A stretch of 64,000 nt of DNA from an uncultured Holophaga sp. (GTDB lineage Bacteria; Acidobacteriota; Holophagae; Holophagales; Holophagaceae): assembly GCA_963664825.1 (NCBI GenBank), contig OY761614.1, positions 2,624,001-2,688,000 on the forward strand, in the 5' to 3' direction. The notes under the pieces are model-generated. The model was not told the origin of the DNA and did not search any database. It saw nothing but the letters and a program-made list of their open reading frames with translations. This document shows positions 13,009-53,958 of this stretch, in pieces. The position numbers and the translations under genes are program-made. Numbering within the stretch: the stretch's first letter is position 1; each line of letters starts with the position of its first letter.

Positions 13009-13034
13009 TGTAGCGCGGCAAAATGAATCATCGG

Positions 13035-13080
13035 GAATCCGTCAGAATGATTGGTAGCTTTCAATCATTTTGACGGATTC
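13035..13080. promoter_or_regulatory. Palindromic end site, putative transposase-binding (unit 1 left end)
   Basis: GAATCCGTCAGAATGATTG-gtagcttt-CAATCATTTTGACGGATTC; same motif at 28695-28740. Confidence 0.6.
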
Positions 13081-13347
13081 TCGGCCTGGAAAGCGCGAGA
13101 GACAAACTGGCTCCCGTTGTCGTGGCGGAGTTTTAACCCGGCGGCGGCTTCTCCCACGCTGCCGAATTCTGATGGCTCTTGTGTCGCTATCACCGCCAAC
13201 CCATGGGGACATACTCGTAAAGTTCATCCCCAATGCGGTTCGAGTAGAACATCCCCCGCCAGAACCGGGGGTTTCCCTAAAAGCAGTGATGCCCGGCCAA
13301 TCTTGGGTGCCGAGGGCTCAAGGGATTACAATCCATCAGAGGCTCAA

Positions 13348-14454
13348 ATGCAGATTGATTTTCACCACGCGACCACCTATGTACTCTCGCGTTTGGCTGG
13401 CTTTAGCCATCCGGAGGCTCGTACCATCGCATATGCGGCGCAATACGTGGACGACGCCACATGTTCGGGCACGGTGTACCTCGAAGGCCGTGCCCCTTTT
13501 GACCGTGTGGCCTCGGCGCACCCGATTGATCCACGGGATGCCGAGTGCCCTCAGGATTTTATGGAAAACGCCAACAACGTGGGCAACTTGGCATCCTGGT
13601 CCCTTTTCCATTTCCTTCCCGGCAATGGCGGGGAAATAGCTGGCCAGGGAATGGATCTTGCCATGGTGGACCGCTTTGTCTGCACTCCGGACAGCCCTGT
13701 CGCCAATGCCATGTGGACTGCCTGCCGGGAGGCCAAGGGTACTCCACATGCCTTATACCGCCTGGGCATCACCGCGCATGTTTATGTCGACACGTGGGCG
13801 CACCAAGGGTTTGTGGGGATGAAACATGCCCGCAACCATGCGCACGACCTTGACCGGCCCGGTTTCAGTGTGAAAGAGCTGCTGGACAACCTTGGATCGC
13901 AGGCATTTCGGGAGTTCCCCTTAGGGCATGCCATGGGTATGACCCTGCCAGACATGCCCTTTCTCACTTGGTCCTATGTCAACTATGATGGGAACAAAAT
14001 CCTTCGCAATAACACTCTCGACTTTCTGGCTGCCAGCCAACGCCTCGTGGAGCAGATGGGGTATTTTCGAGGGGAAGAGGCCCATCTGCAGGAAGCCGAC
14101 CGTGCCGCCCTGGAACATGCCTTCCGGACCATCCAGCACACCGATGGGCGCCAGCGTCACAGGGGATGGTTGGACCTCCTCGCCCACAATCCATTCTCGT
14201 TTGGCATTCTAAGCCCTGTGGAGTTGGAGGAATTGGCATACCCGGACAAAGGTAAGGGCGTTGGATCCTGGAAAGAGGAAGCCCTGGGAACGGCCAGTCT
14301 TGTCAATAACCCTGGCCCTTTCACCTATACCCCAGCTTTTGAAACAAGCCATTGGAAGCTCTTTCATGAAGCTCTCAAGGATCATCGAAATATCGTCTGG
14401 GGAAGCATCTTTCGTGACTTCGGCTTGGTGCCAAGCGTGGCCCTCGAGGCCTGA
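13348..14454 (+). CDS. DUF6765-like protein (putative Zn-dependent phospholipase C/P1-nuclease-like fold)
   Basis: MQIDFHHATTYVLSRLAGF..AQYVDD N-terminus, FHFLPG, LGITAHVYVDTWAHQGF. Confidence 0.7.
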   Translation: MQIDFHHATTYVLSRLAGFSHPEARTIAYAAQYVDDATCSGTVYLEGRAPFDRVASAHPIDPRDAECPQDFMENANNVGNLASWSLFHFLPGNGGEIAGQGMDLAMVDRFVCTPDSPVANAMWTACREAKGTPHALYRLGITAHVYVDTWAHQGFVGMKHARNHAHDLDRPGFSVKELLDNLGSQAFREFPLGHAMGMTLPDMPFLTWSYVNYDGNKILRNNTLDFLAASQRLVEQMGYFRGEEAHLQEADRAALEHAFRTIQHTDGRQRHRGWLDLLAHNPFSFGILSPVELEELAYPDKGKGVGSWKEEALGTASLVNNPGPFTYTPAFETSHWKLFHEALKDHRNIVWGSIFRDFGLVPSVALEA

Positions 14455-14524
14455 CGCCAGACGACTTCCACATATGTGCCCTGACCCTCCAAAACCTCAT
14501 CGCAGGGGTGAAGGGCCGCGCAAG

Positions 14525-14760
14525 GTGAGTCCGACTCCTTGTGGTAATAGCCGAGGTAGCCCTTCAGAAACCGCATCAGGTGCTGCTCGTCCAGCACAAT
14601 GACATGGTCGAGTAGCTCACGCCTGAGGGTTTTGATGAAACGCTCGCAGGCACCGTTTTGCCATGGGCTTCGGAAGCTGGCCTGCTTGGGGATGATGCCC
14701 ATAGACTGGATGAACGCCTTCAGGGCACCGAAGATCGTGTCCCGGTCGAAGATCAGATAC
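14525..14760 (-). pseudogene. Integrase-core (rve) transposase fragment
   Basis: PWQNGACERFIKTLRRELLDH; near-identical to 44080-44310. Confidence 0.8.
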
Positions 14761-14789
14761 CCTAAAATCCTGAACTACCTAAAAAGTTA

Positions 14790-16119
14790 GGTTCTTCACG
14801 TTTTTCCGGGGAAGGCCGCACGGATCTTAAGGAAGAAGTAGCCCTCATCCCGGTAGCCGTAGGCGATGCGCTTGAGGACTTTGATCTTGTTGTTGATCCC
14901 TTCCTGGACGCTGGTATTGAGCGGCCAGCGGCAATGGGAGAGGATTCCGTCGATCCGCTGGGCGAGATTCTTGGCGAACTTCACGAGGGGCTGGAGTCCA
15001 CTTGAGGTGGCGAGTTCCATCCAGTTCTCCCAGGCCTTCAGAGCCCAGCCCTCCCGCGTGTAGCGCCACAGTGCCTTCAGGGCGTCTTTCAGCACGTAGG
15101 CGGTCATCAGAGGCTGGTTCGCGTCCAATAACTCGTTGAGGCGGACTTTGGCATCCCGATTCGGCAGGTTCTCCCAATTGCCCAGCAGGAGCCACTTCGC
15201 GCCCTTGACGAGCTCCCGCGAGGCCTTGTCGTGCCGGTATCGATTGGCCTCATCCACCCGGATCCGGTCGATGACGTCATGGCCGTACTTTGCCACGACA
15301 TGAAACTGGTCGTAGACGATCTCGGCGTTGGGACAGCGCGCCCGGACTTCGCCTTCGAAGGCCGCCGACATGTCTATGCCCACGGCCTGGATCCGTTTGC
15401 AGCCCTTCTTCCCGATCAGATCGAAGAACGGGCGGATGTCCTCGCGGCCACGCCCTTTCCCGACCCAGAGCACGCGACGCGTTTCCGCATCCGTGATGAC
15501 CGTGGCATAGCTCTGTCCCTTGTGGATGGCGAATTCGTCCATCAGAAGAAGCCTCGCCTTGCTCAGCTTCACGGGCCCAAGTTCTCGGTCCAGGTAAGCC
15601 TTGTCGATCGCCTTCACCGTGCCCCAGTGCAGGTCATAGTGCTCCGCGACCTGTTTGATGGGCATGACCTTGCAAAGCCGCGCCACGCTCGCGGCAAGCC
15701 GGTTCGTGATCCGGGCATGGGGCTCCAACCAGTCCAGGGCTTCCAGCTTCGGGCCGCACCGGGGGCAGGCTACTCGAGCCCGCCACACCACTAGGACTGT
15801 GTCGGCGTCGAACAGCGGAAGGTCGCGGATCTCCCGCTCTGACCAGTCGTGGACGCTCCGCACGAAATGCCCACAACCGCTGCACTTCCGGGGATGATCG
15901 CCGAACCCAAGCAACTCGATCCACACCTCGGCCCGCGGCCCCTTCACCCCGGCTTCGAAGCGCTCCACGATTCCGACGCGTTGCCCTTTCCACCCGCCCA
16001 AGCGGGACATAAGCTCTTTGGTAGGCAGTGGCGGCCTCCTTCATCTCGAGTTCTCGACAAACCCAAGATGCCTGAAATCCGCCACTGCCGACCTACTTCA
16101 CGCAAATCCGCGAAGAACC
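14790..16119 (-). mobile_element. ISL3-family insertion sequence, 8-bp TSD AAAAGTTA
   Basis: GGTTCTT...AAGAACC termini; TSD 14782-14789/16120-16127; empty site seen at 25761-25775. Confidence 0.92.
14796..16010 (-). CDS. ISL3 transposase
   Basis: Zn finger CSGC..CPRC, DEFA, GIDMS, DQFHV, EGINNKIKVLKRIAYGYR. Confidence 0.95.
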   Translation of the reverse strand: MSRLGGWKGQRVGIVERFEAGVKGPRAEVWIELLGFGDHPRKCSGCGHFVRSVHDWSEREIRDLPLFDADTVLVVWRARVACPRCGPKLEALDWLEPHARITNRLAASVARLCKVMPIKQVAEHYDLHWGTVKAIDKAYLDRELGPVKLSKARLLLMDEFAIHKGQSYATVITDAETRRVLWVGKGRGREDIRPFFDLIGKKGCKRIQAVGIDMSAAFEGEVRARCPNAEIVYDQFHVVAKYGHDVIDRIRVDEANRYRHDKASRELVKGAKWLLLGNWENLPNRDAKVRLNELLDANQPLMTAYVLKDALKALWRYTREGWALKAWENWMELATSSGLQPLVKFAKNLAQRIDGILSHCRWPLNTSVQEGINNKIKVLKRIAYGYRDEGYFFLKIRAAFPGKT

Positions 16120-16148
16120 AAAAGTTAGGGTTTCACTGCGGGGCTCCT

Positions 16149-16439
16149 TCATTCTGGGACCGTCAGCCCACCCGCAATAAGCCCCTCCAGGCTCTTTCGC
16201 TCTACCAGCAGCCTCCGCCCGCCGTTGGGTCCGGGACGCTGCCAGATGGCCACCCTGGGCGCCTTGCGATCACAGCAGGCGGCCCGGAAGGAATCCGGTT
16301 CCATGCCCATGGCGCGGGCGGCGGCCTTGACGGGGATCCAGCCTCCTTCGGAGATTAGCTCTAGGAGATTGGCTGAATCACTGGGCAGACACGGCCCCTG
16401 GCTCACTGTTCGTTCCTGGCGAACGGCTGTCCTCATCAC
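16149..16439 (-). CDS. Small HTH (excisionase-like) phage protein, copy A
   Basis: WIPVKAAARAMGMEPDSFR HTH; paralog of 25791-26048. Confidence 0.55.
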   Translation of the reverse strand: MMRTAVRQERTVSQGPCLPSDSANLLELISEGGWIPVKAAARAMGMEPDSFRAACCDRKAPRVAIWQRPGPNGGRRLLVERKSLEGLIAGGLTVPE

Positions 16440-16739
16440 TCCTCCTCCACCGCAGGCTTCCCGCTTTTTGGCAGTTTCAGAAAGGGGCCTTGGCCCCTTT
16501 TCTCTGTTTCTCCCCTGCCGTCTGTCCCGGTCGTGAGCCGGTCGATGCGTTCAAGTTTGGCTTCTTTCTGGCGGCTCAAATACAGGCCAAAGGGGAAACA
16601 AGGATGACCGAAGGGAATCCGCCAGGTTCCAGTTTGGACGCTCAATGGATGCGTTCCTGAGGTGGCATTGATGACCAAAGACCGCCCCCGATAGGGGGTG
16701 GGCGTAGGGCACTTCATTCCAAAACGCCAAAAGCTGTCC

Positions 16740-17828
16740 TCATGGTTCGGAACGCGTCAACGACTTTGAGACAGAAAGTTGCCTGAATTCTCGCTTGGAC
16801 CCACCCGCTGCGGAGAGGTGCCGGGGCCATGGACAAGTCTTTGACTTGACCACAGCCCCTTGGAAAACGCTGCGCGTTTCCCACACCTCACAGCAGCCGA
16901 AGGAGATCATCATGCTGCGATTTCCTTTTTTGGGGGATTGATCCACGCCGGACTTGGCAGTGCGGGCGGCGTGGATCTCCTCGGCGCGGCCTTCGTGGAC
17001 GCTGGCGGGCGTCATCATGCCGATGCCGCTGTGCCGATGCAGATGGTTGTACCAATGGAAGTAGCGGCGGCAGAAGCTTCGCGCGTCCTCGATGGAACCG
17101 AACCGCTCCGGGAAGTCGGGGCTGTATTTCAGCGTCTTGAACTGCGATTCGGAATACGGGTTGTCGTCGGAAACGTGAGGCCGACTGTGGCTCTTCGTGA
17201 CCTTCAGGTCGGTGAGGAGGGTGCCCACCGTCTTGGAAACCATGGCTGGGCCTCGGTCCGAATGCAGGGTCAGTTCACCCGGCCGGATGCCATGCTGGAG
17301 GAAGGTCTGGCGGTGGAACTCCCTGGCGAGGTCCTCGTCCTCCCGCTCCTGCACGGTCCAGCCCACGACCAGGCGGCTGAACAGATCGATGGTCACGTAG
17401 AGCTTGAAGCGGCTGCCTCGCACGGGACCCTTGAGATCCGTGATATCCCAGCTCCACACCTGGTTCGGCGCCTGCGCGCAGAGTTCGGGTTTCACATAGA
17501 CCGGATGCCGCGCCTGGTCGCGCCGTTCCTTCACTTCCTGAGCCTCGTCGAGGATTCGGTACATGGTCCGCGACGAGCAGAGATAGCGGCCTTCATCCAT
17601 CAACGTCGCCTGGATCTCGGCGGGCGCACGGTCCACGAAACGCTCCGAATGACACACCTCCAGCACTGCCTGTCGTTCCGAGTCCGAGAGCGCCCGCGGG
17701 GATTTGGGACGAGGCCCGGGTGGACCTTTCGGCTTTCGGCGGCGGTAGAAGGTCGCCCGCGATACGCACAGCAGATCACAGGCCGGCTGAATCCCGATCT
17801 CTTCCGCCAAGGCTACCGCCGCCGTCAT
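16740..17828 (-). CDS. IS3-family transposase OrfB (integrase core; aberrant C-terminus)
   Basis: APNQVWSWDIT, LHSDRG, DNPYSESQFKTLKY; tail shifted relative to copy at 43100-43236. Confidence 0.8.
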   Translation of the reverse strand: MTAAVALAEEIGIQPACDLLCVSRATFYRRRKPKGPPGPRPKSPRALSDSERQAVLEVCHSERFVDRAPAEIQATLMDEGRYLCSSRTMYRILDEAQEVKERRDQARHPVYVKPELCAQAPNQVWSWDITDLKGPVRGSRFKLYVTIDLFSRLVVGWTVQEREDEDLAREFHRQTFLQHGIRPGELTLHSDRGPAMVSKTVGTLLTDLKVTKSHSRPHVSDDNPYSESQFKTLKYSPDFPERFGSIEDARSFCRRYFHWYNHLHRHSGIGMMTPASVHEGRAEEIHAARTAKSGVDQSPKKGNRSMMISFGCCEVWETRSVFQGAVVKSKTCPWPRHLSAAGGSKREFRQLSVSKSLTRSEP

Positions 17829-18309
17829 TCGCTGTCCTCGTTCTCGAACCGATGGCCCAGCGACAACTTCTCCATCAGTTCGGAGGCTTTTTTTGACATC
17901 TCCAGCATCCACTCGGCCCGCGCCAGCTTGCGTTTCAGGGCCTTGTTCTCCTTCTCCAGTTCCTTGTTCCGGGCCTCGTGCGGATCCCGCGGCTTCGGTC
18001 TCGGCCCTGGTTTTACCGGGTTCAGGGCGCCCAACGCCCCGAGCTCACGCTGCTGCCGCCAACTCGAAAGGTGCGAGGAATAGAGTCCCTCTCGCCGAAG
18101 CAATGCGGCGATCTGGCCCGGCACCGAGCACACATCCACCTCGGCCAGCACCTTCAACTTGTAGCTGGCGCTGAACCGCCGCCGTTTGGGGCGGCTCAAC
18201 TCCACCTCCCCGTTCCCCAACTTCAAGACCTTGCTCATCCCATTTCCTTCCCCGCCCCGACAAAAGACTCTGAAGTGTCTCCTGTCTCAAAAAGCTTGGC
18301 GCGGGGGGG
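16748..18309 (-). mobile_element. IS3-family insertion sequence (OrfB C-terminus internally deleted)
   Basis: TGTCTCAAA subterminal inverted repeats at 16765-16773 and 18283-18291; OrfA/OrfB overlap ATGA. Confidence 0.8.
17825..18238 (-). CDS. IS3-family transposase OrfA (HTH)
   Basis: RRRFSASYKLKVL...LLRREGLYSSHLSSWR. Confidence 0.85.
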   Translation of the reverse strand: MSKVLKLGNGEVELSRPKRRRFSASYKLKVLAEVDVCSVPGQIAALLRREGLYSSHLSSWRQQRELGALGALNPVKPGPRPKPRDPHEARNKELEKENKALKRKLARAEWMLEMSKKASELMEKLSLGHRFENEDSE

Positions 18310-18438: not shown

Positions 18439-21159
18439 CTAAGCTCGGGCAATGGGAGGCATCGATCCTGGGAGTGCAGTTCCTGGCGCTAGGCCCAAAA
18501 CCCCCTGGATTGCATGAGCTAATTCGTGCAACGAATATGGTTTATTTAGCAATTTCACCGCAGGTATGGCCTTGATCCTACAGCTGGTCTCGGCGTCACA
18601 GTGACCCGAGGAAATCAACACCGGGAGTTCTGGGCGCAGCATCCGCAGGCGTACAAGCGTCTCAATACCATTCATTCCAGGCATATTCAGATCCAGGATG
18701 ACCAGATCCACAAGCATCCCGGCTTCCAGCCGCCTTAGGGCCTCCAGACCACTGGAAGCCACTTGGACCTGATGCCCAATCATTTCAAGAAGATCCACGG
18801 CTGATGCTCGGATCAGTTCATCGTCATCCACGATGAGGACCCTGGAGGCTTGGGACCGTTCACCCAGGGTTGGGGTCTGGGCGATTTGGGGAGTTTCTCT
18901 CTTCGCCAGGATGGGAAAACTCAAGGTGATGCAGGTCCCCTCGCCAGGCACACTTCTGATGTCCACCGTGCCGCCATGAGCCTTCACCGTCCCATAGACG
19001 ATAGATAGCCCGAGTCCCGTTCCCTTTCCAGCGGGTTTTGTGGTGAAGAAGGGTTCCATGGCCTTCTCTGCGATTTCACTGGGCATGCCTGCACCGGTAT
19101 CGGTCACAGCGAGTTCGACCAGTTCTTCCCCCCTCTGGCGCGTTTGGAACTTTAGCGAACCTCCCTTGGGCATGGCGTCACAGGCGTTTACGCACAGGTT
19201 CATGAGGACATTGGAGAGAGCGCTGGCTTCTCCCATGATTTCAGGAAGCGGCCTCTGAAGCTCGACCTTGATCTCAATTTTTTTGAAGGTCGTGTGTTTG
19301 AGGAGATCGGCCTCCTGTTCCACCAAGACGTTGAGATCAATGGGCACGGCGTCCTGGACATCCTTGCGGGAGAAATCAGTGAGGCCCTTCACAAGATCTC
19401 GCCCGCGAATCGCGGCTTGAGCGATGACATCGAGTTTGTGAACCTGCCTCTCGTCGAGGCTTGGATCGGCCTGTAATATGTTAGTCATAGCCAAAATGGC
19501 CGCGAGCACATTATTCATGTCATGAGAGACGCCCCCCGCCAAACGGCCCACACTTTCCAATCTTTGGAGATGATTTAGCTCCTGTTCGAGTTGATGTTCC
19601 TTCTCTCGGGCGGCTTTTATTTCTGTGACATCTCGGATGAGATCCACAAGAATGGGCTGCCCACCCAACTGGATGATTTCTGCCGAAAGTAGCGCCTGGC
19701 CGACCTCTCCAGAAGCCCTGCGAAAGGTGAGTTCAAAATTCCGGATTCGCCCCGTTGATGCGAGCCGGTCCATCGCGACCTGCCGCTGTTCAGGCTGGTC
19801 CCAGAGCCCCAGTTCTATGGTCGTTCTGCCCAATACCTGATTGAGTTCGAAACCCGCCAGGGTGAGAAAGGCCCCATTGGCTTCGATGATGACGGTGTCC
19901 TCAACGCGCACCAGGACGATGGGTATCGGCGAAGCGCGAAAGACCGCTGCAAACCGAGCTTCACTGATGCGCAGTTCGGCATCGGCCCGTCGGCGATCCG
20001 TGATATCGGTGTGGATGATCACCAAGCCCCTGCGGCTTCCCGTAAGGGCCGTGGCCGCAAGATGGAACCAGCGCTCCTGATCGGGAGCGGGGCAGGGGTA
20101 TTCGATTTCGAAACGGGGCAGGTCGCCCTTCAGGAGTGCCTGGAACCCTTCCAGACATGTTTTGGCCTCCGTCTCTGAATGGGCGTTGCGGAGGGTCTCG
20201 AAGTAATTCACACCGATACCCGAGGCAAGGGCTTCATCTGCCCCGTTGGCCTGTCCAAAATCCACCCAGGCCCGGTTCACATCGAGGATGCGCCCCTCTT
20301 CATCCAGCACCACGAGACCCGGCCCCATGCTGTCCATCACTGCCCGCAGAAGTGTCTCGGAATCATGGAGGGCTGTCTCTGCGTCCCGTCTCCGCTGAAT
20401 GTCCTCCACGATGCACACAAGATAATCCGGGTCCCCTTGGGGATTCCGCACGAGGGAAACCGAAAGGGAGATCCAGACTTCAGTGCCATTTTTTCGTATA
20501 TTCGGTTTCTCCTCCAGATAGGTCGATTTTTCGCCTTCTAGGAGCAGCCCAATCTTGGCCCGTGTTGAAGCGGCCCATTGAGGAGAACACAGGTCCTGGG
20601 TTCGAAGACACAGCAGCTCCTCTTGGGAGTAGCCCAAAATATCGCATAGGCGCTGATTGACTCGGAGGAAGCGCCCATCCAGGGCGACCTGGGCGATGCC
20701 GATAGCGGCTTGCTCAAAGGTCGCCTGGAAGCGAGCCTCCGAGGCGGCCAGGGCTTGCAAACCTTCGATACTGGCCTTGCGGGTGTGGGCTCCAAGCACG
20801 GCCTGTTGGATGGCAGCCACCAGGCGGCCTGGTCGGTCCTTGAGGATGAAATCCTGGACCCCTAATTTTAAGAGGGCCACGGCTTCTTCTTCCCCAACGC
20901 TCCCGGAGAAGAGGATGACGGGCAACTTGGGATCGTAGGCCTGGATCCGGTTGAGGGTTTCGCGGAAGGGCATTCCTGGTACGGAGTAATCCGATACGAT
21001 GACATCCCAGGGCCCATGTTGGAGTGCCGCATCAAGATCCCCCATGCGATCGATGCGCTGAGCTTCTGCGACGAGCCCTTCCTGTTTTAATAGGTGCAAA
21101 GTCAATAAGTAGTCTGCGGCAGAATCTTCCACGGAAAGCAGGCGAACAGGGGGACGCAT
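18439..21159 (-). CDS. Hybrid sensor kinase REC-PAS x3-HisKA-HATPase-REC
   Basis: GRLAGGVSHDMNNVL H-box, NLCVNACDAM, DTGAG, PFFTTKPAGKGTGLGL; REC domains at both ends. Confidence 0.93.
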   Translation of the reverse strand: MRPPVRLLSVEDSAADYLLTLHLLKQEGLVAEAQRIDRMGDLDAALQHGPWDVIVSDYSVPGMPFRETLNRIQAYDPKLPVILFSGSVGEEEAVALLKLGVQDFILKDRPGRLVAAIQQAVLGAHTRKASIEGLQALAASEARFQATFEQAAIGIAQVALDGRFLRVNQRLCDILGYSQEELLCLRTQDLCSPQWAASTRAKIGLLLEGEKSTYLEEKPNIRKNGTEVWISLSVSLVRNPQGDPDYLVCIVEDIQRRRDAETALHDSETLLRAVMDSMGPGLVVLDEEGRILDVNRAWVDFGQANGADEALASGIGVNYFETLRNAHSETEAKTCLEGFQALLKGDLPRFEIEYPCPAPDQERWFHLAATALTGSRRGLVIIHTDITDRRRADAELRISEARFAAVFRASPIPIVLVRVEDTVIIEANGAFLTLAGFELNQVLGRTTIELGLWDQPEQRQVAMDRLASTGRIRNFELTFRRASGEVGQALLSAEIIQLGGQPILVDLIRDVTEIKAAREKEHQLEQELNHLQRLESVGRLAGGVSHDMNNVLAAILAMTNILQADPSLDERQVHKLDVIAQAAIRGRDLVKGLTDFSRKDVQDAVPIDLNVLVEQEADLLKHTTFKKIEIKVELQRPLPEIMGEASALSNVLMNLCVNACDAMPKGGSLKFQTRQRGEELVELAVTDTGAGMPSEIAEKAMEPFFTTKPAGKGTGLGLSIVYGTVKAHGGTVDIRSVPGEGTCITLSFPILAKRETPQIAQTPTLGERSQASRVLIVDDDELIRASAVDLLEMIGHQVQVASSGLEALRRLEAGMLVDLVILDLNMPGMNGIETLVRLRMLRPELPVLISSGHCDAETSCRIKAIPAVKLLNKPYSLHELAHAIQGVLGLAPGTALPGSMPPIARA

Positions 21160-21162
21160 CGT

Positions 21163-21588
21163 TCACTCCGCACTGGGGGCAACGGGTTCGTTGATGATGG
21201 CCCAGTAGAATCCAACCCTTGCAACGGTGTCGGCGAATTCGGAAAAATCCACGGGTTTTCGCACAAAACTATTGGCTCCATGTTTGTAGCTATTTATACG
21301 GTCCTGTTCCTCGTCCGAGGACGTCAAAATCGCCACCGGCAGCAATTTGGTCCTGGGCTCTTCTCGCAGGCGTGCGAGGACTTCCAACCCTCCGATCCGA
21401 GGCAGGCCGAGGTCGAGCATGACAACCACCGGCAGCTCCTGCTTGGGATCAAGCAGGAGATCCAGGGCCTGCTGACCATCCCGGACCACGAGAATGGGAT
21501 TGGCAATATTCGCCTTCCGGAGGGCTCGGAGCGTAAGCATTTCATCCTGGATATTGTCCTCCACCAGGAGGATGGACTTGAGGGTCAT
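21163..21588 (-). CDS. Single-domain response regulator (Rcp1-like)
   Basis: LLVEDN, LDLGLP, LTSSDEEQD, GANSFVRKP. Confidence 0.93.
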   Translation of the reverse strand: MTLKSILLVEDNIQDEMLTLRALRKANIANPILVVRDGQQALDLLLDPKQELPVVVMLDLGLPRIGGLEVLARLREEPRTKLLPVAILTSSDEEQDRINSYKHGANSFVRKPVDFSEFADTVARVGFYWAIINEPVAPSAE

Positions 21589-27232: not shown

Positions 27233-27240
27233 AATCGCTT

Positions 27241-46108: not shown

Positions 46109-46289
46109 TTCTCGCGCGCCATGCGGCGAATCAGACCCCGAAGATTCCCGGAGATGGCGGGCCGACCTACCTTGCGTATCTTCCTGGACTTCCAGCGCCA
46201 GAAGAGACGGAAGCCTGCCCGATACCAATAGATGACGGTGGCGGGCTTCACCAGCATGCAGACCTCCTGCCATCGGGGCCAGATCCGGC

Positions 46290-47916
46290 GTATCGATTCA
46301 CCCCGCTTGTCCCTGTGACCGCGTAAGCCGGTGGCAGCCAGCCGTGATGGGCTGGTGATGTCCCGCTTGCCCTGGCAGCCTCAGGCCGGTTCCAGTGCTG
46401 GTAGGGGCTGATTGGATCGGGCGGAGTGGAGGGCCCTGAGCAGCCAGTCGAAGTAGGGCACGCCGCGGATGCAGGCGGTGGTGCCCAAGCTCAGGAGGCG
46501 TTCGAAGAATCGCTTTCCGTCCGCGCTGGGCAGTCGCTGGAAGATCCGCTTGAGGATCACGAGGGGGCGCAGGGCCCGCTCGGCCGCATTGTTCGTCGGC
46601 TCCACGCCCTCGACCTTCAGGAACACCCAGAGCTTGTCCCATTTCCGGAGGAGGTCCTTCCCGAGGTTCCGGGCGGCCTTGTGATCCATCGTGCTGGCCT
46701 GGATCAGGCCCCGCTTGAGCCGCGCCAGGTTGATGGCCGTGCAGGCGCGCAGAACCTTGCGGGTGATCTCGCCACTTCGGAAGGCGTGCCACAGCGCAAA
46801 GATCTCCTCCTGCTCGGCGAGCAGACGCTTTCCCAGTGCGGCCACCTCGGGCTTCGCGGATTCGTTGAGGGCGATGAACTCCCTGCGCAAATGGGCCCAG
46901 CAGAACTGGCGAACGGCAGATTTCAAGGCGTTGTAGGCGCCGTATCGGTCCGTTCCGATGATGCCACTGAAATCCTCGGGAAGCATCGCGGTCAGGGCCC
47001 TCGCCCCACGGGTGTCGCTGAAGTGGAAGAGGGCCGTGCGGGCGGAAAGGGCCACCCAGATCCAGTCCCGATCCTTCCGCCCGAAACCGGTCTCGTCGAG
47101 GTTGAGCACGTCCGCCGTGCGGATCTGCTGGGAGAGGTCCTCCCAGGCGGGGAGTAGGTGGCTCCCCAGCGCCACACCGCTCTCATGCAGCCAACCGCGT
47201 GAGACCGCTACGCCCGTCACCTCCGAGAGGAAACGCTGGAGCGGCGTCAGGCTCATGCGGCCCTCTGTGCGCAGATAGGCCGCCGCAGCCTGAAGGCGCG
47301 GGCCGATCCCGCCGGGCGCGGCCTCCGGTGGCAGCGAAGCCCGGACCTTTCGCTGGCAATGCGGGCAGATGCCCTCCTCCAGCGCGTAGGCGATGACTTC
47401 TGTGAGGCGCTGAGCCAGATCCACCACCCGGTGCAGGCGCGTCCCGGTGATGGCCCCTGAAGGAACCTCGCCGCGGCAGTGGGGGCAGCATCCAAGCGCC
47501 ACCGCCACCGTCCGATCCTCGCTGCCCTCCGGCAACATCACCCGAGCGGACCCCTTTCGTCCCGGTTGGCCGCCGCGCTTGCGCCCCGTGGGCGGCGTCG
47601 GTGGCTTGGGCGGCGCCGCGGGTCCGTCCGAACTGGGGGGCTTGCTGCTGTTGCGGCTGTCCTTCCCGAGCCGCTCCTGGAGGGACTCCAGCAGCTTCTC
47701 CAGGCGCTCCATCGTCTCCCGCAGGCGAGTCATTTCCGCACGCAGTTCCCCGTTCTCGGCGGCCAGCGCCAGATAACGCGGATCGGTCAGAACGGGATCA
47801 AGCTCCATCCTTTAGAATCTGACTGGTTTGAGACCGAAGTACAAGCAAATTATTCACTTGCAGTGATCCCCCCCCCTCAATCACGAGTTGAACCTGAAGG
47901 GGGGGTGAATCGATAC
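46290..47916 (-). mobile_element. IS66-family element, second copy (no TSD)
   Basis: Same IRs as 39467-41094; flanks GATCCGGC / GGGCGTAG differ. Confidence 0.9.
46381..47808 (-). CDS. IS66 transposase TnpC
   Basis: Near-identical to 39576-41003 protein. Confidence 0.93.
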   Translation of the reverse strand: MELDPVLTDPRYLALAAENGELRAEMTRLRETMERLEKLLESLQERLGKDSRNSSKPPSSDGPAAPPKPPTPPTGRKRGGQPGRKGSARVMLPEGSEDRTVAVALGCCPHCRGEVPSGAITGTRLHRVVDLAQRLTEVIAYALEEGICPHCQRKVRASLPPEAAPGGIGPRLQAAAAYLRTEGRMSLTPLQRFLSEVTGVAVSRGWLHESGVALGSHLLPAWEDLSQQIRTADVLNLDETGFGRKDRDWIWVALSARTALFHFSDTRGARALTAMLPEDFSGIIGTDRYGAYNALKSAVRQFCWAHLRREFIALNESAKPEVAALGKRLLAEQEEIFALWHAFRSGEITRKVLRACTAINLARLKRGLIQASTMDHKAARNLGKDLLRKWDKLWVFLKVEGVEPTNNAAERALRPLVILKRIFQRLPSADGKRFFERLLSLGTTACIRGVPYFDWLLRALHSARSNQPLPALEPA

Positions 47917-48290
47917 GGGCGTAGTCCGGGGTGGAGGTCCGGATCTCGGGGCCGTCGAAACGCCGGATGACCTTCAGGGCCTCGCCGCACTCGATCTGGG
48001 CCTGGCGCATCCGCTTCGCCACGACCAGCAGGCGCTTTTCCCAGCCCCTGAAAGGGATGTGGCCGTTCTTGGTGCGGGCGTTCGCCCTCCAGCCCGTGGA
48101 GCGGTCCGTGGCCCCCATGTCACTCATCCAGCAGCGCAGGAAGAGCTGCCTCGCAGCCTCCATCTCGTCCTCACAGGGCTCGAAGGCCTGCTGATCTTCG
48201 AGCCTGGCCCAGGGGGTTCCCTGGATCTGAGCCACGGACGCCTCCAGGCGCTGGCGGAGCATCCGCCAGATTCTCAGCATCGTTCCCAGC
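47917..48290 (-). pseudogene. Phage DNA adenine methylase (D12/Dam-like) fragment truncated by IS66
   Basis: EAARQLFLRCWMS...RMRQAQIECGEALKVIRRFDGPE, the segment preceding the DPPY motif in this family. Confidence 0.6.
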
Positions 48291-48305
48291 GTTTGCCAGA
48301 GCGAC

Positions 48306-48329
48306 AAAAAGCCCCGCTAAAGCGGGGCT
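48306..48329 (-). terminator. Intrinsic terminator after antirepressor operon
   Basis: Minus strand GCCCCGCT-tt-AGCGGGGC then TTTTT. Confidence 0.7.
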
Positions 48330-48349
48330 GATTGTAAGGGTAGAGCGCG

Positions 48350-48613
48350 TCAACCGGCTTGTTTGAACAACGCCTTCTGCGTTTGGCCCAGATCCGCCTC
48401 CAGCTTGCCCAGCTGATCAGCCAGAAGACCCAGCATGAGACCGAAACCATAGGCTTCGCGGCTGCTGAGTTCCAGGGCTGGGGAATTCGGTAATCTTTCT
48501 TCCCTGCCGCATTCCCGGGCTTGGAGAAGGGCTTTAGCGGCTTCAAGCTGGGCCTGAAGATCTCTGGCCAAGATGCGAGCCTCGTCCAGTTTATCGAGGG
48601 GTGTGAGGCTCAT
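48350..48613 (-). CDS. Small helical hypothetical protein coupled to antirepressor
   Basis: TAATG overlap with antirepressor stop; MSLTPLDKL... 87 aa. Confidence 0.55.
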   Translation of the reverse strand: MSLTPLDKLDEARILARDLQAQLEAAKALLQARECGREERLPNSPALELSSREAYGFGLMLGLLADQLGKLEADLGQTQKALFKQAG

Positions 48614-49452
48614 TAGAGGGCCTCCGGCGCGGGGAATATGGCCGGGGATAGGCGGTGCAAAACGGTCTTGGCCACATCGTTGCCGTAGAGGTCCACCAAC
48701 TCCCGAGGCGTGACCTCCCGAACTGTGATGGGGCCCCTGGAGGAGGCCGCTCCCACGGGGCCTTCGGCCCAGCGGCGCTCGGGCGTCATGTATTCGCCCC
48801 GAGGGCGGCCCTTGGTGGGGTGGAGAGGGAAGAGTGCCATGTGGGCGGCGAAGGGTTCGAAGGCCACCAGCATGACCTTGCCGTCCTTGCGGTGGGGTAG
48901 CGCGTAGTCCTGGACGCGGGAATGCACCGTAGGACGCGGCAACCCGAGGCGGCGCCCGCACTCGCCGGGGCTCAGCCATGTCCACCGTTTGGTGTCCGGC
49001 TGGGCTTCCTCGGGATTCTGGCCCGTGATGCCCTCAATCTCACCGAAGAGCGCTCGCGTTGCCTCCGGCGCGGTGGCCCGGATCTCGGGACGGATGGCGG
49101 CGCCCGTGCGCCAGTAGGCGTCCAGCACCTGGAAGCACTCCTTCTGGTAGGTTCGCAGGCGCTCCCGGAACTCCGGCTTCACGCGAGCCGCCTGGATGCT
49201 AAAGAGCCAGCCGTTCAAGTTCTCCAGGGGCAGGCAGGTCATGGTCTGGGGACCACCCGGGGAAGGGATCAAGATATCTTGATACCCCCACAGATCCTTG
49301 TCTGCGGTGAGTTTGGCATGCTGTCCCTGCCAGGACGCCCCAAGCTGGGTGCAGAGGGGCTTGGCTGGAACGAAGGGTTTCCCATTCTCGGGATGGGATA
49401 CAAGGAAGACAACCTCCCCGTGGAAGTCGATGGATCTGAGTTCGGCCGTCAT
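48613..49452 (-). CDS. Phage antirepressor (P22 Ant N-terminal domain) with C-terminal HTH
   Basis: IDFHGE, PFVPAKPLCTQLGASWQGQHAKL, CLPLENLNGWLFSI, YQKECFQVLDAYW. Confidence 0.88.
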   Translation of the reverse strand: MTAELRSIDFHGEVVFLVSHPENGKPFVPAKPLCTQLGASWQGQHAKLTADKDLWGYQDILIPSPGGPQTMTCLPLENLNGWLFSIQAARVKPEFRERLRTYQKECFQVLDAYWRTGAAIRPEIRATAPEATRALFGEIEGITGQNPEEAQPDTKRWTWLSPGECGRRLGLPRPTVHSRVQDYALPHRKDGKVMLVAFEPFAAHMALFPLHPTKGRPRGEYMTPERRWAEGPVGAASSRGPITVREVTPRELVDLYGNDVAKTVLHRLSPAIFPAPEAL

Positions 49453-49680
49453 GCGGCACTTCCTTTGTTGGGTCCGGCTTTCTAGGCCAGACGGAGTTGG
49501 ATGAATGCCCCGAGGGGCGGCTGGTGAGACCGGGAGCTAGAAACCCCAACGACGTGCCAAAGGGAACACGAGGTGGAGCGAGCTTCTTCGTGCGTGTTAC
49601 CACGCCTTATTCCGCTACACTCCCGGCGATTGCTCACCATTGCATCCGTCCTTTGGTTCGTCGGGTTTTCTAGACCCGAT
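49453..49680 (-). ncRNA. Putative C4/CI-like antisense RNA switch in antirepressor leader
   Basis: a1 CTAGAAA, b1 CCAAAGG, complements b' CCTTTGG and a' TTTCTAG, then a2 CTAGAAA and b2 CAAAGG over the RBS. Confidence 0.6.
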
Positions 49681-49896
49681 GAACAAAGGATGCCCTGCCA
49701 CGGATTCCGGTCAAGCGAAAATCCGTCAAAAAGATTGGTAATGCCTGTCAGGACTCTGAAACGGTGTGATCACATGTGGCATCTCGTTCCTTAACTCGCC
49801 CAATGGTAATGGCCCAGTGTTTCCAACCTGTTGCCCGTATTGGTGACATGCAAACTGGCGATGCGCATGGGTTTCCTCCTTGTGAGATGTGATTAA

Positions 49897-50379
49897 CTAA
49901 CCTTGCTGCTTCTCCCACCGTTTACTCGCCCCGACTTTCCCCTTCAGGTGCTCCAAACACGCCTGGAGGGCTTCCATGGGCCAGGCTTCGAGCTTGCGAG
50001 GGGTGCCGTGGATATGGGGGTAGTGCTGCTGGAGCCAGGTCTGGACGCGGGTGCGGACGAGGGCGCGGCGGGCCGACTCGCTGGCATCGAAGGGGCCGGG
50101 CTCCTCTGGCACGTCCCAGCCAGCGCTGTAGGCCTCCCGTAGGATCCGACCCACCAGGGGGGACTTGGGATCCAGACGCGGAGCGGGGGCAGAGGCGGGG
50201 CGCCCGCCCGCTAGGCGGTCCAGTTCGGCCAGGACGCGCCTGCCCTGGGCGTCTGTCAGATCCTTGCTGGAGCGCTTACCCGTGAGGTTTTCCAGGAGAT
50301 CCCGGTAGACATCATCCTCAGCCAGACCCGGGATTCGACGGCGCAGGGCGTGGATGGCCTTGATGTAGGTGGGTGACAT
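49897..50379 (-). CDS. gemA: Mu GemA/gp16-like regulatory protein (DUF1018)
   Basis: IKAIHALRR..GLAEDDVYRDLLENLTGKRSSKDLTDAQGRRVLAEL. Confidence 0.8.
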   Translation of the reverse strand: MSPTYIKAIHALRRRIPGLAEDDVYRDLLENLTGKRSSKDLTDAQGRRVLAELDRLAGGRPASAPAPRLDPKSPLVGRILREAYSAGWDVPEEPGPFDASESARRALVRTRVQTWLQQHYPHIHGTPRKLEAWPMEALQACLEHLKGKVGASKRWEKQQG

Positions 50380-50620
50380 GAGGACTCCAACCATGCACAT
50401 GCTCAAGTGAAGACTTCAGCAGCAAGCTCAGGGCACTGGGCGTAGCCCAAATTTCGGTCGCTGGCGATGCGTTCCTGGGCTGCTTCAATAATTCGAAAAT
50501 TATGATGCGCTAGACAGCTTGATATTGTAGTTTGCAACTACTTTATTTATGTTGATCTGCATGTTCGCTTTCGTTTTATTGGCCTGGTGGTAGATTTGTC
50601 GGACCATTCAAGGTGACTCT

Positions 50621-51076
50621 ATGGATTCGAGGCAAGCACAACACCTCATGGAATCTTTCGAGGCTGCAAAGCTCCTGGATGTCGGAGGGGAGGTTTGGAG
50701 CGCTCGCGAACTCATGGCCTTGTTGGGGTATGCAGACTGGAAGAATTTCAAAAAGTCCATTAGCAAGGCAATCACTGATGCAATTACCTATGGAATTGAT
50801 CCGATAACAAATTTCGTCGAATCGCGAAGGGTTGGACCTCCTGGGTCCAAGAACACGACTGCACGAGATTTCAGGCTCACCCGTGGTGCTGCATATCTTG
50901 TAGCGCTCAATTCCGATCCGGCTCACGATGCTGTAGCTTTTGCTAGAGTTTATTTCGTGATCCAAACTAAAACATCAGATATTATTCAACAAAGTATGAT
51001 GGAACTCTTTGGTAACGACCTACATATTCTGTACGCCTTTGGTGGTTTTAATTTTCAAAATGGACATAAGGTATAG
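50621..51076 (+). CDS. DinD/BRO-like DNA-binding protein (likely truncated)
   Basis: SFEAAK..WSARELMALLGYADWKNF..LTRGAAYLVALNSDP..YFVIQT. Confidence 0.75.
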   Translation: MDSRQAQHLMESFEAAKLLDVGGEVWSARELMALLGYADWKNFKKSISKAITDAITYGIDPITNFVESRRVGPPGSKNTTARDFRLTRGAAYLVALNSDPAHDAVAFARVYFVIQTKTSDIIQQSMMELFGNDLHILYAFGGFNFQNGHKV

Positions 51077-51321
51077 AAAGAGGCTGTTTCCCATTGAGTA
51101 TCCTCAACATCAGGCTTTAGGGTGAATAAATTTCTTGGGTTGATGAGGCGTAAGCCCAAGACCCTAGAAAAGGAGGCACTTGATCCATGGATGCATCATT
51201 TGCTCTAGATCGCTTTGTCTGACGTTGGCAAGGGGTGGGGGTGGAAATCGAAGCCGACGAGGGCAATCTGTTTCAGCCCTGCAGGGACGATTCGCCGCCC
51301 CCGGCCCTTATGCGAGTCGGA

Positions 51322-51552
51322 TCACGCGATGATGGGAATGTTCAGGCCGAAGGCCTCCATCTCGGCGCGAATCGTCGTGATGGCGTCGATCTTCCATCGG
51401 CCGCCGTCGGCCTCCACCAGCATCAACGCCGGAGTCCCCTCACCGGTGCACCTGGCCCGAAAGACGAACTCGGAGATGGGCTGCTCGATCTCGGGGAAGG
51501 TCCGGAAGGGTGCTAGGGCCACGCGAGGCTTGATGGTGATGGACTCCTTCAT
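51322..51552 (-). pseudogene. C-terminal fragment of conserved phage protein
   Basis: LAPFRTFPEIEQPISEFVFR...EADGGRWKIDAI. Confidence 0.55.
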
Positions 51553-51599
51553 CCGCAGGCCCGCTTTGACGTTGGCCCGCTGTGTGAACCCATCATCCT

Positions 51600-51759
51600 C
51601 GGTGGGACATGAACGCTCGTGAGGCGTAGCGCCTTGAACTGGGCCTCTTTGATCCAGAAGGCCGCATAGGTGATGAAGGCCTTCCCCTGACGAGCATCAA
51701 ACCGCTGGGCCGCCTCCAGGGCACCCACGCGGCCTTCCTGAATCAGGTCATCCACCGTG
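51600..51759 (-). pseudogene. Sigma-70 region 2-like fragment
   Basis: DDLIQEGRVGALEAAQRFDARQGKAFITYAAFWIK. Confidence 0.7.
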
Positions 51760-51940
51760 AGACGCTCGTCGAAATTGATGTTGTCCTGGTTCGAGACCTG
51801 GACCTTGAAGTGGCCGTCGAAGGAAAAGAGGGTGAGATTGCCCTTGGCGCCGCCTACCTTGGCCCTGTATTTGGCGGCGGATTCCTCGACGAAGGCCTGG
51901 ACCTCCTCAAAGACCGAAGCCTTGAACATGGCCAGCTGGT
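51760..51940 (-). pseudogene. DUF3164 Mu-like phage protein fragment
   Basis: SAAKYRAKVGGAKGNLTLFSFDG..KVQVSNQDNINFDERL. Confidence 0.75.
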
Positions 51941-52555
51941 CCGCAGCCACTGCTGGGCCTCATCCAGGACATAGGAGGGGACTCCGCCCCGAACGGAGCG
52001 GCGTTCCCACGGATTCAGGCTGGCCAACCTCGGGCGGACAGCCAGATCCAGGAAGCTCAGCCGCGCCTGCTGGATGGCCTGCGCCCGCTGGAGGGCGTCG
52101 GGATTGGCCCGGAGGACTACCTGCTGAGGATCGCGCTTGATCGGTGCGGGGCGTGTGGCCACGGGGCAGGGCTGGATCGAGGCCTGCTGACGCTCCCAGG
52201 CTGCGCGGGCGCCGGGATACGCGGCTAATAGCGACGCTGGCACCACTCGGTATTCAAGGCGCCCTTTATTTGGACCAGATTCCGCCACGACCTGAGAGGC
52301 CTGGAGCTTCTTGGTGGAAATGGCCTTTTGGATTGATCGGGTTGAAACAGAAGCGAGTTCCGCCGCTTCATGCACCGTGAGCGTGCGAACCTCGTGTGGA
52401 TCCGTTATCTGCCCACCATGAACACTATTTGTTTGTCCCTTCAGGACTTGACTTGGTTCGCACGGCCCCTGATTTGGTTCGTGCGGTTCGTGCGATATCG
52501 CGCGAACCACGCGCGAACCGGGTTCGCACGATATGGGGAGAGGGATCGAAGACAC
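51941..52555 (-). pseudogene. MuA-like transposase N-terminal fragment (unit 2)
   Basis: HTH TVHEAAELASVSTRSIQKAI; 51941-52220 near-identical to 26615-26893. Confidence 0.8.
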
Positions 52556-52565
52556 CGTAACCTCG

Positions 52566-52898
52566 CTAGGCCGCTGGCTCGGACCTGCGTCCCCAAATGC
52601 GATCCGCTTTGATTCCGATGCTTTCCGCAATCACGTCTTCGACCGTGGCGTCCTTTCGGACTCGATCAATGACCTGGTGGAAGTAGGCGTCGCTGTAGCT
52701 GCTGGTCTCGGCCAACAGCTTCACGTTCTTGCCCTTCAGCTTGAGCAAGGCCCGGATCGCTTCGGGCTTCAAGGACCCGTCTGGTCTGATTCCTTCGGCC
52801 ATGAGGGTTTGGATATCTGAGGCAGTTGCCACAATGGCATCAACACTTACGGGTAAGCCGTAGGCAGGCCGCTTGCGCGGCTGTAGTTCAGGGCTCAT
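52566..52898 (-). CDS. ner: Ner/Nlp-like transcriptional regulator (unit 2)
   Basis: Paralog of 27241-27573 (DGSLKPEAIRALLKLKG...ADRIWG). Confidence 0.75.
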   Translation of the reverse strand: MSPELQPRKRPAYGLPVSVDAIVATASDIQTLMAEGIRPDGSLKPEAIRALLKLKGKNVKLLAETSSYSDAYFHQVIDRVRKDATVEDVIAESIGIKADRIWGRRSEPAA

Positions 52899-52995
52899 GC
52901 TAGGCTCCGGTTGCTTAGTCCACGAAGCGTGGACAGTCCTAGACTATTTCACCAAGCGTGAAAGTCAACCCCTCTATTCCACGATGCGTGAAAAA

Positions 52996-53727
52996 ATGTC
53001 AGACCAATCCCTCGCAGAGAGATTCCGCGCCCTCAGACTGGCCCTGAGTAAGAGCCAATCCGCCTTCGGTGAGCCGATCGGAGTTAGCTATGCCGCCGTC
53101 TCACGGTGGGAGAAGGATGATGCCTTACCTCCCGATATGGCCGCTATCGCCCTAGAACACGTCTATGGTGTGTCCTCAAAATGGCTCCTGACTGGCGAAG
53201 GGCCCATGTGGATACCAAAACCCGCGCCTACGGAAGGCAGCGCGGAGCTACTCAGCCGCCCACTCATTGCAGGTGCCGCCTCCTGCGGGCCGGGTGGGGA
53301 GATCGCCGATCCCGGTCCAACTGCCCTGCGAATGCCCTTCCGCAAGGACTTCCTCCTGGAGCTCCTCCAGGAGAGCGGTGCTGGATCCACAGAGGATCTC
53401 TACGTCGTGGAATGCTCTGGTGAATCCATGCGGCCAACCGTCCATCCTGGCGATATGGCTCTGATTAACACATCTCTGGAACTCCGGCTCCAACCCAAGC
53501 GCAACGCCCTCTACCTCGTGCGCCCTGATCCAGCCAGTGCAGAGGGTCGCATCAAGCGAGTTCGTATTGATGCCAATGGCCAGCTCTGCTTTCTGTCAGA
53601 TGCACCTGGATTCACGCCAATCGCTGTTGACCTGGACAGCCTGCCCATGCAAAGCCTCATTCTGGGCCGCGTCTGCTGGGTGGCCCGTAGCGTCGTGAAG
53701 GACGAACGCCCAGAGCGGAACTGGTAG
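52996..53727 (+). CDS. Phage repressor, XRE HTH plus S24 peptidase (unit 2)
   Basis: SQSAFGEPIGVSYAAVSRWE HTH, WLLTGEG, GESMRPT, IKRV; start uncertain. Confidence 0.9.
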   Translation: MSDQSLAERFRALRLALSKSQSAFGEPIGVSYAAVSRWEKDDALPPDMAAIALEHVYGVSSKWLLTGEGPMWIPKPAPTEGSAELLSRPLIAGAASCGPGGEIADPGPTALRMPFRKDFLLELLQESGAGSTEDLYVVECSGESMRPTVHPGDMALINTSLELRLQPKRNALYLVRPDPASAEGRIKRVRIDANGQLCFLSDAPGFTPIAVDLDSLPMQSLILGRVCWVARSVVKDERPERNW

Positions 53728-53958
53728 GCAACTCGTTCCAACCATATTGACGGATTTAGAAGCCTGGCGCAGGATCCGAAGCCAATCCGCAGGATTCGTG
53801 CATCCTTTTTGCCGGATTTCCGCTTCGTTACGCGTCATCCGTCCCAAACTTATTGACGGATTCTCAGGTCTCCAGATCACCCACAAAGCCCCGCCCGCGT
53901 TGGCTTTTGGGCCATGTGCCCGAATCGGTCGTCATGCGAATTATTTCGACGGATCACA

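Follow-up and report, generated by a model that had tools for sequence, protein, structure and literature searches.

What is the 41-kb block that splits a repeat behind a transfer RNA (tRNA) gene on contig OY761614.1, and how did it come to lie there? The block occupies positions 13009..53958 (40,950 bp) of a 64,000-nucleotide stretch of that contig, referred to here as the window; the genome that holds the window is called G000. An initial annotation, made from the letters alone, had described it as a cargo-carrying, non-autonomous composite of two units derived from a Mu-like transposable phage. Our analysis indicates that the block itself is an ordinary decayed composite and that it exposes an unusual lineage of Mu-like phages that home to tRNA genes; the mechanism we put forward for this homing is a proposal.

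The boundaries of the block are those of a transposition product. As had been described, the pentanucleotide GCCGC is duplicated exactly (13004..13008 and 53959..53963, plus strand) and flanks termini that read TGT from 13009 and ACA up to 53958. A search of five genomes for the empty site showed it with the predicted boundaries, uninterrupted and with a single GCCGC, in two genomes of the same genus, G007 and G008; the others did not show the site whole. The end sequences also recur elsewhere in G000, in five additional far ends and two additional repressor-side ends, two pairs of which carry the 5-bp duplications CAGAC and GCTAG. Because the empty site has one GCCGC and the same ends carry other duplications in G000, the block is a genuine product of MuA-type transposition with a 5-bp duplication and not a chance arrangement.

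The block holds two units, both on the minus strand. Their repressor-side ends (28416..28629 for unit 1 and 53745..53958 for unit 2, both minus strand) each contain an 11-bp motif four times in the same direction, at 5, 98, 142, and 204 bp from the terminus, whereas the far ends (13009..13079 for unit 1, with the TGT terminus, and 28669..28793 for unit 2, both plus strand) carry the end motif once outward and once inverted. TG...CA ends with repeated putative transposase-binding motifs are a feature of the lineage. The inner end at 28629 is 95% identical to the 53958 end across 260 bp, and the inner end at 28669 is 97% identical to the 13009 end across 71 bp, so the proposal of two units with matching ends holds, except that the units do not abut: 39 bp of host DNA lie between them. 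The ends that had been called right ends are repressor-side ends and, by gene order, the equivalents of Mu left ends; the far ends correspond to the Mu right end.

The initial annotation passed over the insertion target, a site downstream of a tRNA gene that this phage lineage has used repeatedly. The repressor-side end of unit 2 points toward the 3' end of tRNA-Ser(TGA) (54076..54165, minus strand), the presumed landmark, whose 3' end lies 117 bp and whose T-loop lies 141 bp from the end of the element. Beyond the opposite boundary, a copy of the tRNA-Ser 3' end and trailer (12911..12973, minus strand; 92% identical to 54034..54095) forms the terminus of a tRNA-linked repeat of about 190 bp that is split by the block and unbroken in G007 and G008.

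To place this insertion among others, we tallied every placeable repressor-side end of the lineage, 22 in all, two of which were unscorable (141 and 19 bp of flank). Among the 20 scored, 16 lie behind a tRNA: 15 have a T-loop 94–261 bp upstream, and 1, near a contig edge, lies 86 bp past a tRNA 3' end. The T-loop-to-terminus distances are 94, 102, 115, 116, 124, 127, 141, 144, 144, 148, 148, 188, 213, 250, and 261 bp; at three of the four longest, a closer copy of a tRNA 3' end is present. Inspection of the distances by eye gave no clear helical phasing. The tRNA-linked ends occur in 12 of 12 genomes or contigs, and all share one orientation, with the repressor end toward the tRNA, rather than the two orientations and the absence of a landmark that mark random integration. 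For comparison, positions within 270 bp downstream of a T-loop motif make up 0.46% of the strand-positions of G000. Six tRNA species serve as landmarks, namely Ser(TGA), Ser(GCT), Pro(GGG), Pro(CGG), Arg(CCG), and Lys(CTT), those at G082:C81 and G137 being 3' remnants and not whole tRNA genes. Where both ends of a tRNA-linked element were located, 5-bp duplications are present, barring one element, G091a.

Two features of the sample bear on how the pattern is to be read. Most loci were found by a protein search that was blind to tRNAs, and a blind search with the end motifs added G132, which lies behind a tRNA, and G010, a lone 21-bp match; four of five new matches to the second end motif lay in coding DNA and were dropped as chance. 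The pattern is also common to two transposase types that are only about 27% alike and have different end sequences. In G019, ends lie to either side of two tRNA-Ser genes arranged back to back, and on one side they form a stack: at L011:7458-7511 (G019:C113), three or four overlapping repressor-side termini lie behind tRNA-Ser(TGA), head to head with an element behind tRNA-Ser(GCT). The contigs of G025 and G118 stop before the repressor-side terminus.

Together, these data give good support, as a pattern, to the conclusion that the lasting insertions of this lineage fall in a window about 70–125 bp past a tRNA 3' end or a copy of one, with the repressor end toward the tRNA. A literature search, mostly without subscription journals and without supplements, returned no report of tRNA-directed Mu-like phages. 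Weaker site biases of Mu-like phages have already been published; oriented insertion downstream of tRNA genes is what is new here.

Several points weigh against so general a reading. Three ends are clear misses (C1:759706, C1:3459590, and G082:C83, the last at 1131 bp and in the same orientation), the 21-bp match in G010 lies far from any tRNA, and the end at 28629, which was left out of the count, sits in a tRNA 3' copy by homology only. The 270-bp cut-off was set post hoc, and 12 of 20 ends remain at 150 bp. Related loci are not independent (G021 and G091b share one tRNA locus), and surviving insertions alone are sampled. The end at G019:C50 was inferred from motif likeness, and the duplication of G091a is unmatched. 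Finally, the distant controls carry little weight: of 21 Mu-like loci that had 4 kb or more of upstream DNA, one (L054) had a T-loop there, and of 3 outgroup loci in the phylum none had one, but many of these contigs are trimmed and the ends of the 21 loci were mostly unlocated.

Further observations concern these target sites. The G010 match (L258:1501-1521, G010:C117) is an exact copy of 21 bp of a repressor-side terminus without internal end motifs, near a gyrB-like gene and a motif that we take to be DnaA-box-like. At L054:3290-3560, a distant Mu-like phage that shares the terminal motif of one family end type ends 232 bp after a tRNA T-loop remnant, and from this locus the targeting may reach beyond the host family. 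Repeats of about 100–190 bp are found behind tRNA-Ser or tRNA-Pro genes in the window (12911..13008 and 53964..54075), G007, G008, G093, G132, G137, and L069; they end in a tRNA 3' copy and often start with an antisense T-loop copy.

The lineage was found in one bacterial family. A transposase profile matched 11 of the 157 genomes of the class, all in the family of the window, which the Geothrix source names on two homologues suggest is Holophagaceae, a little-studied family of soil and sediment. The phylum sample added three further genomes, with distant matches only (6 of 401 overall). In whole relatives, a repressor, ner, a MuA-type DDE transposase, and an AAA+ MuB follow in order from one end. 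Two complete prophages were found, one of 38.5 kb in G066 (CTGAT duplication; Mu-type portal, F, and gp36 genes) and one of 44.7 kb in G021 (CTGTC duplication; Mu I, gpT, gp36, and gp37 genes), and both carry Mu-type virion genes between their ends. In G091, internal deletions have left three shortened forms, of 12.3, 16.2, and 18.7 kb; those of 12.3 and 18.7 kb retain both ends and a matching duplication, unlike G091a. The 5-bp duplications vary in sequence, with GCCGC, CAGAC, and GCTAG in G000 and four others in G066, G021, G091b, and G091c. Deletion that retains the ends is recurrent in the lineage, and so is cargo beside the far end, given that the far end of the G021 prophage bears type III restriction genes and a helicase and that a second element of G000 carries an RHS gene. 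In a tree of MuB proteins (46 rows; 7 of 53 loci dropped for want of a long match), those of the family fall within a larger clade with proteobacterial phages, and the tRNA-linked rows are not set apart as a group of their own.

Other searches gave little. A first scan of viral sequences with the transposase of the window found nothing, two scans of viral contigs for end motifs yielded one locus and none, and an end-motif scan of genome contigs gave three single matches in unrelated organisms, which we took as chance. Weak matches to the ner profile in G078, G108, G115, and G136 are not Mu modules and were excluded from the count, as was one in G012 that lies 0.3 kb from a tRNA-Arg with no transposase module seen.

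Further elements and remnants lie elsewhere in G000. A 4.9-kb mini element (C1:754766-759706) has a third repressor/ner type, head and neck genes, and the CAGAC duplication, and its first 158 bp recur as a solo end at C1:2988508-2988665. At C1:3459590-3474696 and 1-584 (L009, L010), a GCTAG-flanked element with no tRNA nearby carries a 2300-aa RHS-type gene and small downstream open reading frames (ORFs); it lies inverted, with an IS66 copy on either side, and the 8-bp duplication of these copies is split to match. At C1:745374-754494 (L007), downstream of tRNA-Ser(CGA), a hybrid kinase gene lies between two nested far ends that are separated by 2.8 kb. Next come remnants of portal, terminase, and holin-like genes, interrupted by a partial IS256, and the locus lacks a repressor-side end.

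What remains of the phage inside the block? Each unit holds the repressor/ner/transposase module that had been recognized, with S24/XRE repressors, ner-like genes, and transposase fragments, so that c, ner, and a truncated A are all that is left of the early order of whole relatives. In unit 1, a CI-type repressor (27604..28398, plus strand; Pfam/PHROG profile matches) adjoins a ner-like regulator (27241..27573, minus strand; phrog_769) and a truncated MuA-type transposase (26045..27232, minus strand; phrog_310) that keeps the first catalytic Asp motif and has lost the rest of the core. This transposase matches residues 58–376 of an 811-aa relative at 59%, and the match stops at residue 376. 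The predicted structure of a close full-length relative folds like MuA/TnsB, the best structural match of the full-length model being MuA (E 1.5e-12), followed by TnsB. In unit 2, a ner-like regulator (minus strand) and a CI-type repressor (plus strand), 68% and 59% identical to their unit-1 counterparts, span 52566..53727, and the match of the truncated transposase (51854..52630, minus strand) stops at about residue 231–248. Remnants of the early region lie at 47917..51950 (minus strand), comprising a methylase piece, an antirepressor, gemA, Bro-N (plus strand), and a DUF3164/sigma-factor fusion. A small phage gene of 85 aa (25791..26048, minus strand) has been joined by deletion to the broken transposase of unit 1; its second copy, with a 93-aa ORF (16120..16717, minus strand), is 95% identical to 25763..26075 and about 51% identical to a gene of the G066 prophage, and in whole prophages it is a neighbor of gemA.

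The block yielded no head, portal, terminase, tail, or MuB gene, in agreement with the initial annotation. As judged from its sequence, the block is therefore not a functional prophage, since A is truncated and no MuB or virion genes were found in it, and it corresponds to a mini-Mu, with both ends intact and the lytic genes lost. The helper that had been suggested, a full-length cognate transposase or MuB, did not appear: a tblastn search of G000 with full-length relatives found neither MuB nor the third early gene, nor any complete transposase, so the block would need a helper to move. The same search did find terminase, portal, and head remnants near C1:749-758 kb, so that genes of this phage family are present elsewhere in the genome. 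The description of the block as a non-autonomous derivative with intact ends thus agrees with the empty site and the other duplications. The block is a genuine but probably stranded composite of two Mu-like remnants.

The history of the composite is recorded in part by the 39 bp between the units (28630..28668, plus strand). This spacer starts with GCGGG and ends with GCCCG, aligns to the empty site of G007 and G008, and differs from the flank of G000 itself. It is the allele of another strain at the tRNA-Ser(TGA)-linked target, and it therefore records two further insertions at the same target in another strain. Its GCCCG end lies 4 bp from the GCCGC used here, and its GCGGG start lies inside the tRNA 3' copy. 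In sequencing run X3, a single-copy contig covers 28602..30101 and another contig represents the empty allele, although the run may include the source of the genome. Contig mapping supports the inner junction, but reaches only 28 letters into the repeat, below the 31-letter bridging rule of the mapping tool. The duplicated modules stand at roughly 2-fold depth at the level of contig mapping, again in runs that may include the source of the genome.

We consider it likely that two related Mu-like prophages of the tRNA-downstream lineage, with near-identical ends and different repressor/ner modules, make up the block as a decayed tandem. In Mu genetics, DNA between two Mu copies can be transferred. 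Two parts of the sequence of events are observed: MuA-type transposition that duplicated 5 bp at a site which relatives show empty, and oriented tRNA-downstream insertion as a pattern across the lineage. In another strain, two phages would have inserted 39 bp apart at the same tRNA-Ser(TGA) target; the pair and its spacer would then have reached the present strain, probably via a phage particle, and the outer ends would have inserted 4 bp from the site used in the donor. The lytic genes would have been lost by deletions, and the cargo brought in or rearranged by insertion sequences.

That the whole block moved as one unit, as the initial annotation had held, is the likelier history, and recombination of the inner part fits the data too. 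In this second history, which we regard as rather unlikely, a single element with the present outer ends and GCCGC transposed, and an inner part, consisting of the unit-2 body, far end 2, the spacer, and the unit-1 repressor module, was added later, in permuted form, by recombination through a 282-bp transposase block, so that the 41-kb block never moved whole. The 282-bp block itself (51938..52219 versus 26612..26893) is 98.9% identical, against about 66% for the DNA upstream, as such a crossover would leave it. It spans the part expected, from the domain order of MuA, to bind the ends, and phages with the same ends would share it in any case. The module at 27169..28631 is 99.9% identical to C1:3459588-3461050, a copy that sits in another element with its own duplication, and C1:3459590-3461220 joins the unit-1 repressor module to unit-2 early DNA (100% over 172 bp; fusion at C1:3461050), so both were once adjacent in some molecule. 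The far end at C1:3462880, by contrast, is a third variant and not a copy of far end 2, and the fusion could postdate the composite, arising by looping out through the 282-bp repeat.

How unusual is such targeting among transposable phages? The papers cited here were accessible in part, and our statements about them are confined to those parts. Like Mu and mini-Mu, the lineage has TG...CA ends with repeated motifs, a 5-bp duplication, the c-ner-A-B order, and a MuA-like predicted fold, and its whole members share DUF3164/Gam, GemA, Mor, and Mu-type head genes with Mu. Mu derivatives that keep only the ends can be complemented in trans, and Mu integrates at random sites (PMC3145075), although it under-samples mature tRNA sequence and inserts in leaders and trailers (PMC7350765). 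The present lineage differs from Mu in that its lasting insertions are oriented and downstream of tRNA genes, its repressor is of the CI/S24 type, and its transposase starts with an HTH_17-like domain. Citromicrobium phiA is Mu-like, with 5-bp duplications, integration within a 40-bp zone (n = 24), and replicative hops genome-wide (PMC12486242), but its target is one hypothetical gene as opposed to several tRNA trailers here, and the accessible text gives no orientation rule or selector. Pseudomonas phage Ab30, of the D3112 group, has hotspots 55–61 bp from bacterial interspersed mosaic element (BIME) motifs, with about 5% of replicative events and no orientation bias (PMC5977238); it too keeps a set distance from a repeated host landmark, although that landmark is a repetitive extragenic palindromic (REP)/BIME motif.

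A further parallel is tRNA homing by Tn7-like elements with TnsF (Tn6022) or with TnsD (CRISPR-associated transposons (CASTs) I-D and I-B2; PMC10293859, PMC11656645), in which CyCAST inserts 30–33 nt downstream of a tRNA gene (PMC10293859). A DDE transposase, an AAA+ ATPase, and insertion downstream of an intact tRNA gene are common to both, whereas the present phages carry virion genes, insert at a longer and looser distance, and lack a Pfam match to TniQ/TnsD, TnsA, or Cas in the scanned ORFs. The accessible parts of PMC8705779, PMC3562280, and bioRxiv 10.64898/2026.05.11.724261 contain nothing on tRNA targeting.

Our tentative explanation of the pattern is that the phages encode a protein selector of their own, with no relation to TniQ/TnsD or Cas, which reads the conserved 3' half of many tRNA genes, giving oriented lysogenic integration while replicative hops go elsewhere. 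It is equally conjectural that this amounts to Tn7-style homing evolved in a transposable phage, in which the reuse of safe sites stacks prophages and their remnants travel between strains as cargo composites. A landmark protein on the 3' half of the tRNA gene would nucleate MuB, and the neighboring DNA would be delivered to the transposase from one side; such one-sided delivery would fix the orientation and leave the distance loose. Among phage-encoded proteins, the best candidate for the selector is a conserved double winged-helix protein encoded directly after MuB. Its gene is present in 8 of 8 family loci where the region was read, and the protein is predicted as two winged helices (predicted local distance difference test score 89), with structure matches that are weak and generic. 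A gene that is conserved and shares an operon with MuB is mentioned, without an assigned function, in the accessible part of PMC10293859. Counting against this candidate, the gene also occurs in proteobacterial Mu-like phages with no tRNA seen upstream, so its presence alone explains nothing and it is a candidate only. The HTH_17-like N-terminal domain is common to both transposase types and may simply be the enhancer-binding domain.

A selector of a known kind did not emerge. TniQ/TnsD, TnsA, and Cas gave no Pfam match among the 13, 55, and 45 ORFs scanned from related prophages, in which gene calls may miss ORFs, and no integrase domain was matched among the related-prophage ORFs scanned. 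In a genome-wide TniQ search, the control queries were silent. The exact T-loop motif was not found inside the G066 or G021 prophage, with which a divergent guide remains compatible.

A host factor is about as likely as a phage selector. Host features behind tRNA genes, such as terminators, tRNA-linked palindromic repeats, bound proteins, or supercoiling, could attract an ordinary MuA/MuB without any phage selector, a possibility to which we give some weight. That two very different transposase types show the same pattern in the same host family is what such features would produce, and many target sites bear tRNA-linked repeats; the absence of a known selector domain from the scanned prophage ORFs and the precedent of the Ab30 hotspots near BIME-like motifs point the same way. 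The repeat is, however, absent at several targets (G004, G091c, G019, and G066), and the Ab30 hotspots lack orientation bias and take a small share of events (PMC5977238), whereas all tRNA-linked ends here face one way.

It is improbable that insertion is near-random and that only harmless insertions behind tRNA genes persist. The sample does consist of long-lived prophages only, and three ends lie elsewhere, one of them inside an apparent coding sequence. Harmless intergenic DNA nevertheless far exceeds 0.46% of the genome, and selection would hardly account for the single orientation, the narrow band of distances, the three insertions that fall within 40 bp at one locus, and the stacked termini. 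That the tRNA link was inherited from tyrosine-integrase islands which carried the elements into tRNA genes is very improbable, despite island traces or tRNA 3' duplications at some sites (G082:C81, G019:C50, and G004), as the 5-bp duplications of the elements themselves lie outside the tRNA, Pfam/PHROG profile scans found no integrase in the block, and the empty site of G007 and G008, which retains an intact tRNA, the repeat, and the tRNA 3' copy, contradicts it.

The remainder of the block is mostly cargo and insertion sequence (IS) DNA, which corrects the initial picture of its makeup. By our segment list, about 9.7 kb are phage-derived, about 11.3 kb of the 40,950 bp are IS DNA, and 18.3 kb are cargo. 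Five IS copies with near-identical twins elsewhere in G000 account for about 7.6 kb; without them the block measures about 33 kb, less than the 36–38.5 kb of whole relatives. From the left, unit 1 contains a DUF6765 gene (13348..14454, plus strand; Pfam PF20551, E 3e-84), an IS3-family fragment (14382..14761, minus strand; rve_3 and repeats), an ISL3 element with 12 near-identical copies elsewhere in G000 (14787..16119, minus strand), an IS3-family element (16746..18308, minus strand), genes for a PAS hybrid kinase, a response regulator, and a PAS kinase (18439..24548, minus strand), and IS256 and IS3 fragments (24662..25680). Among the 60 other genomes searched, none matched the kinase/regulator cargo at E ≤ 1e-100.

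In unit 2, IS3-family fragments (28856..29400) lie left of a class I lanthipeptide cluster (29483..42470, minus strand) with precursors at 29483..29689 and 38883..39053, LanB at 35328..38582, and LanC at 41154..42470, and with HlyD and two ABC transporters, one with a C39 peptidase; an IS66 copy lies at 39467..41094. To the right (42574..47916) follow IS3 fragments, a third precursor (43527..43730, minus strand), IS256 (44651..46108), and IS66 (46289..47916). The cargo first reported, a RiPP cluster and a two-component system, was thus recovered as LanB, LanC, two ABC transporters, HlyD, three precursor peptides, and the kinase/regulator/kinase genes. As far as genes alone can tell, LanB, LanC, precursors with a double-glycine-type leader, and a C39 transporter make this a class I lanthipeptide cluster. 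The three different precursors share similar leaders and are scattered among IS pieces; in G007, none lies between LanB and LanC. Clusters in G007 and G008, where neither a phage end nor a transposase match was found, share 80–86% DNA identity with this one, and LanB homologues occur in 71 of 157 genomes, the cluster type being family-wide. The cluster is bracketed by IS3 pieces, and the cargo overall by IS3, IS256, and IS66 pieces; given these brackets, the cargo may have arrived after the phage insertion.

Outside the block, the window contains a tandem 306-bp duplication, about 90% identical, within an ORF that has no Pfam match (12134..12749). Beyond the tRNA, 54317..54796 is 96% identical to C1:754037-754519, which lies behind a different tRNA-Ser gene. 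After it come hsdM, DUF1016, hsdS, and an AAA ATPase, which probably form a restriction island; in G132, too, the end remnant precedes an hsdM-like piece and a DUF1016-like ORF.

Textbooks present Mu as the random inserter, and homing to safe sites in a set orientation is regarded as a trait of Tn7 that requires TniQ/TnsD. If our reading is true, Mu-like homing without TniQ/TnsD would be a second route to target selection, and the conserved gene that follows MuB might gain a function. As an integration tool, a transposase that inserts tens of kilobases behind tRNA genes with a single orientation would be useful. Within the family, the block illustrates how such hot spots gather prophage remnants together with cargo such as lanthipeptide, signaling, restriction, and RHS genes.

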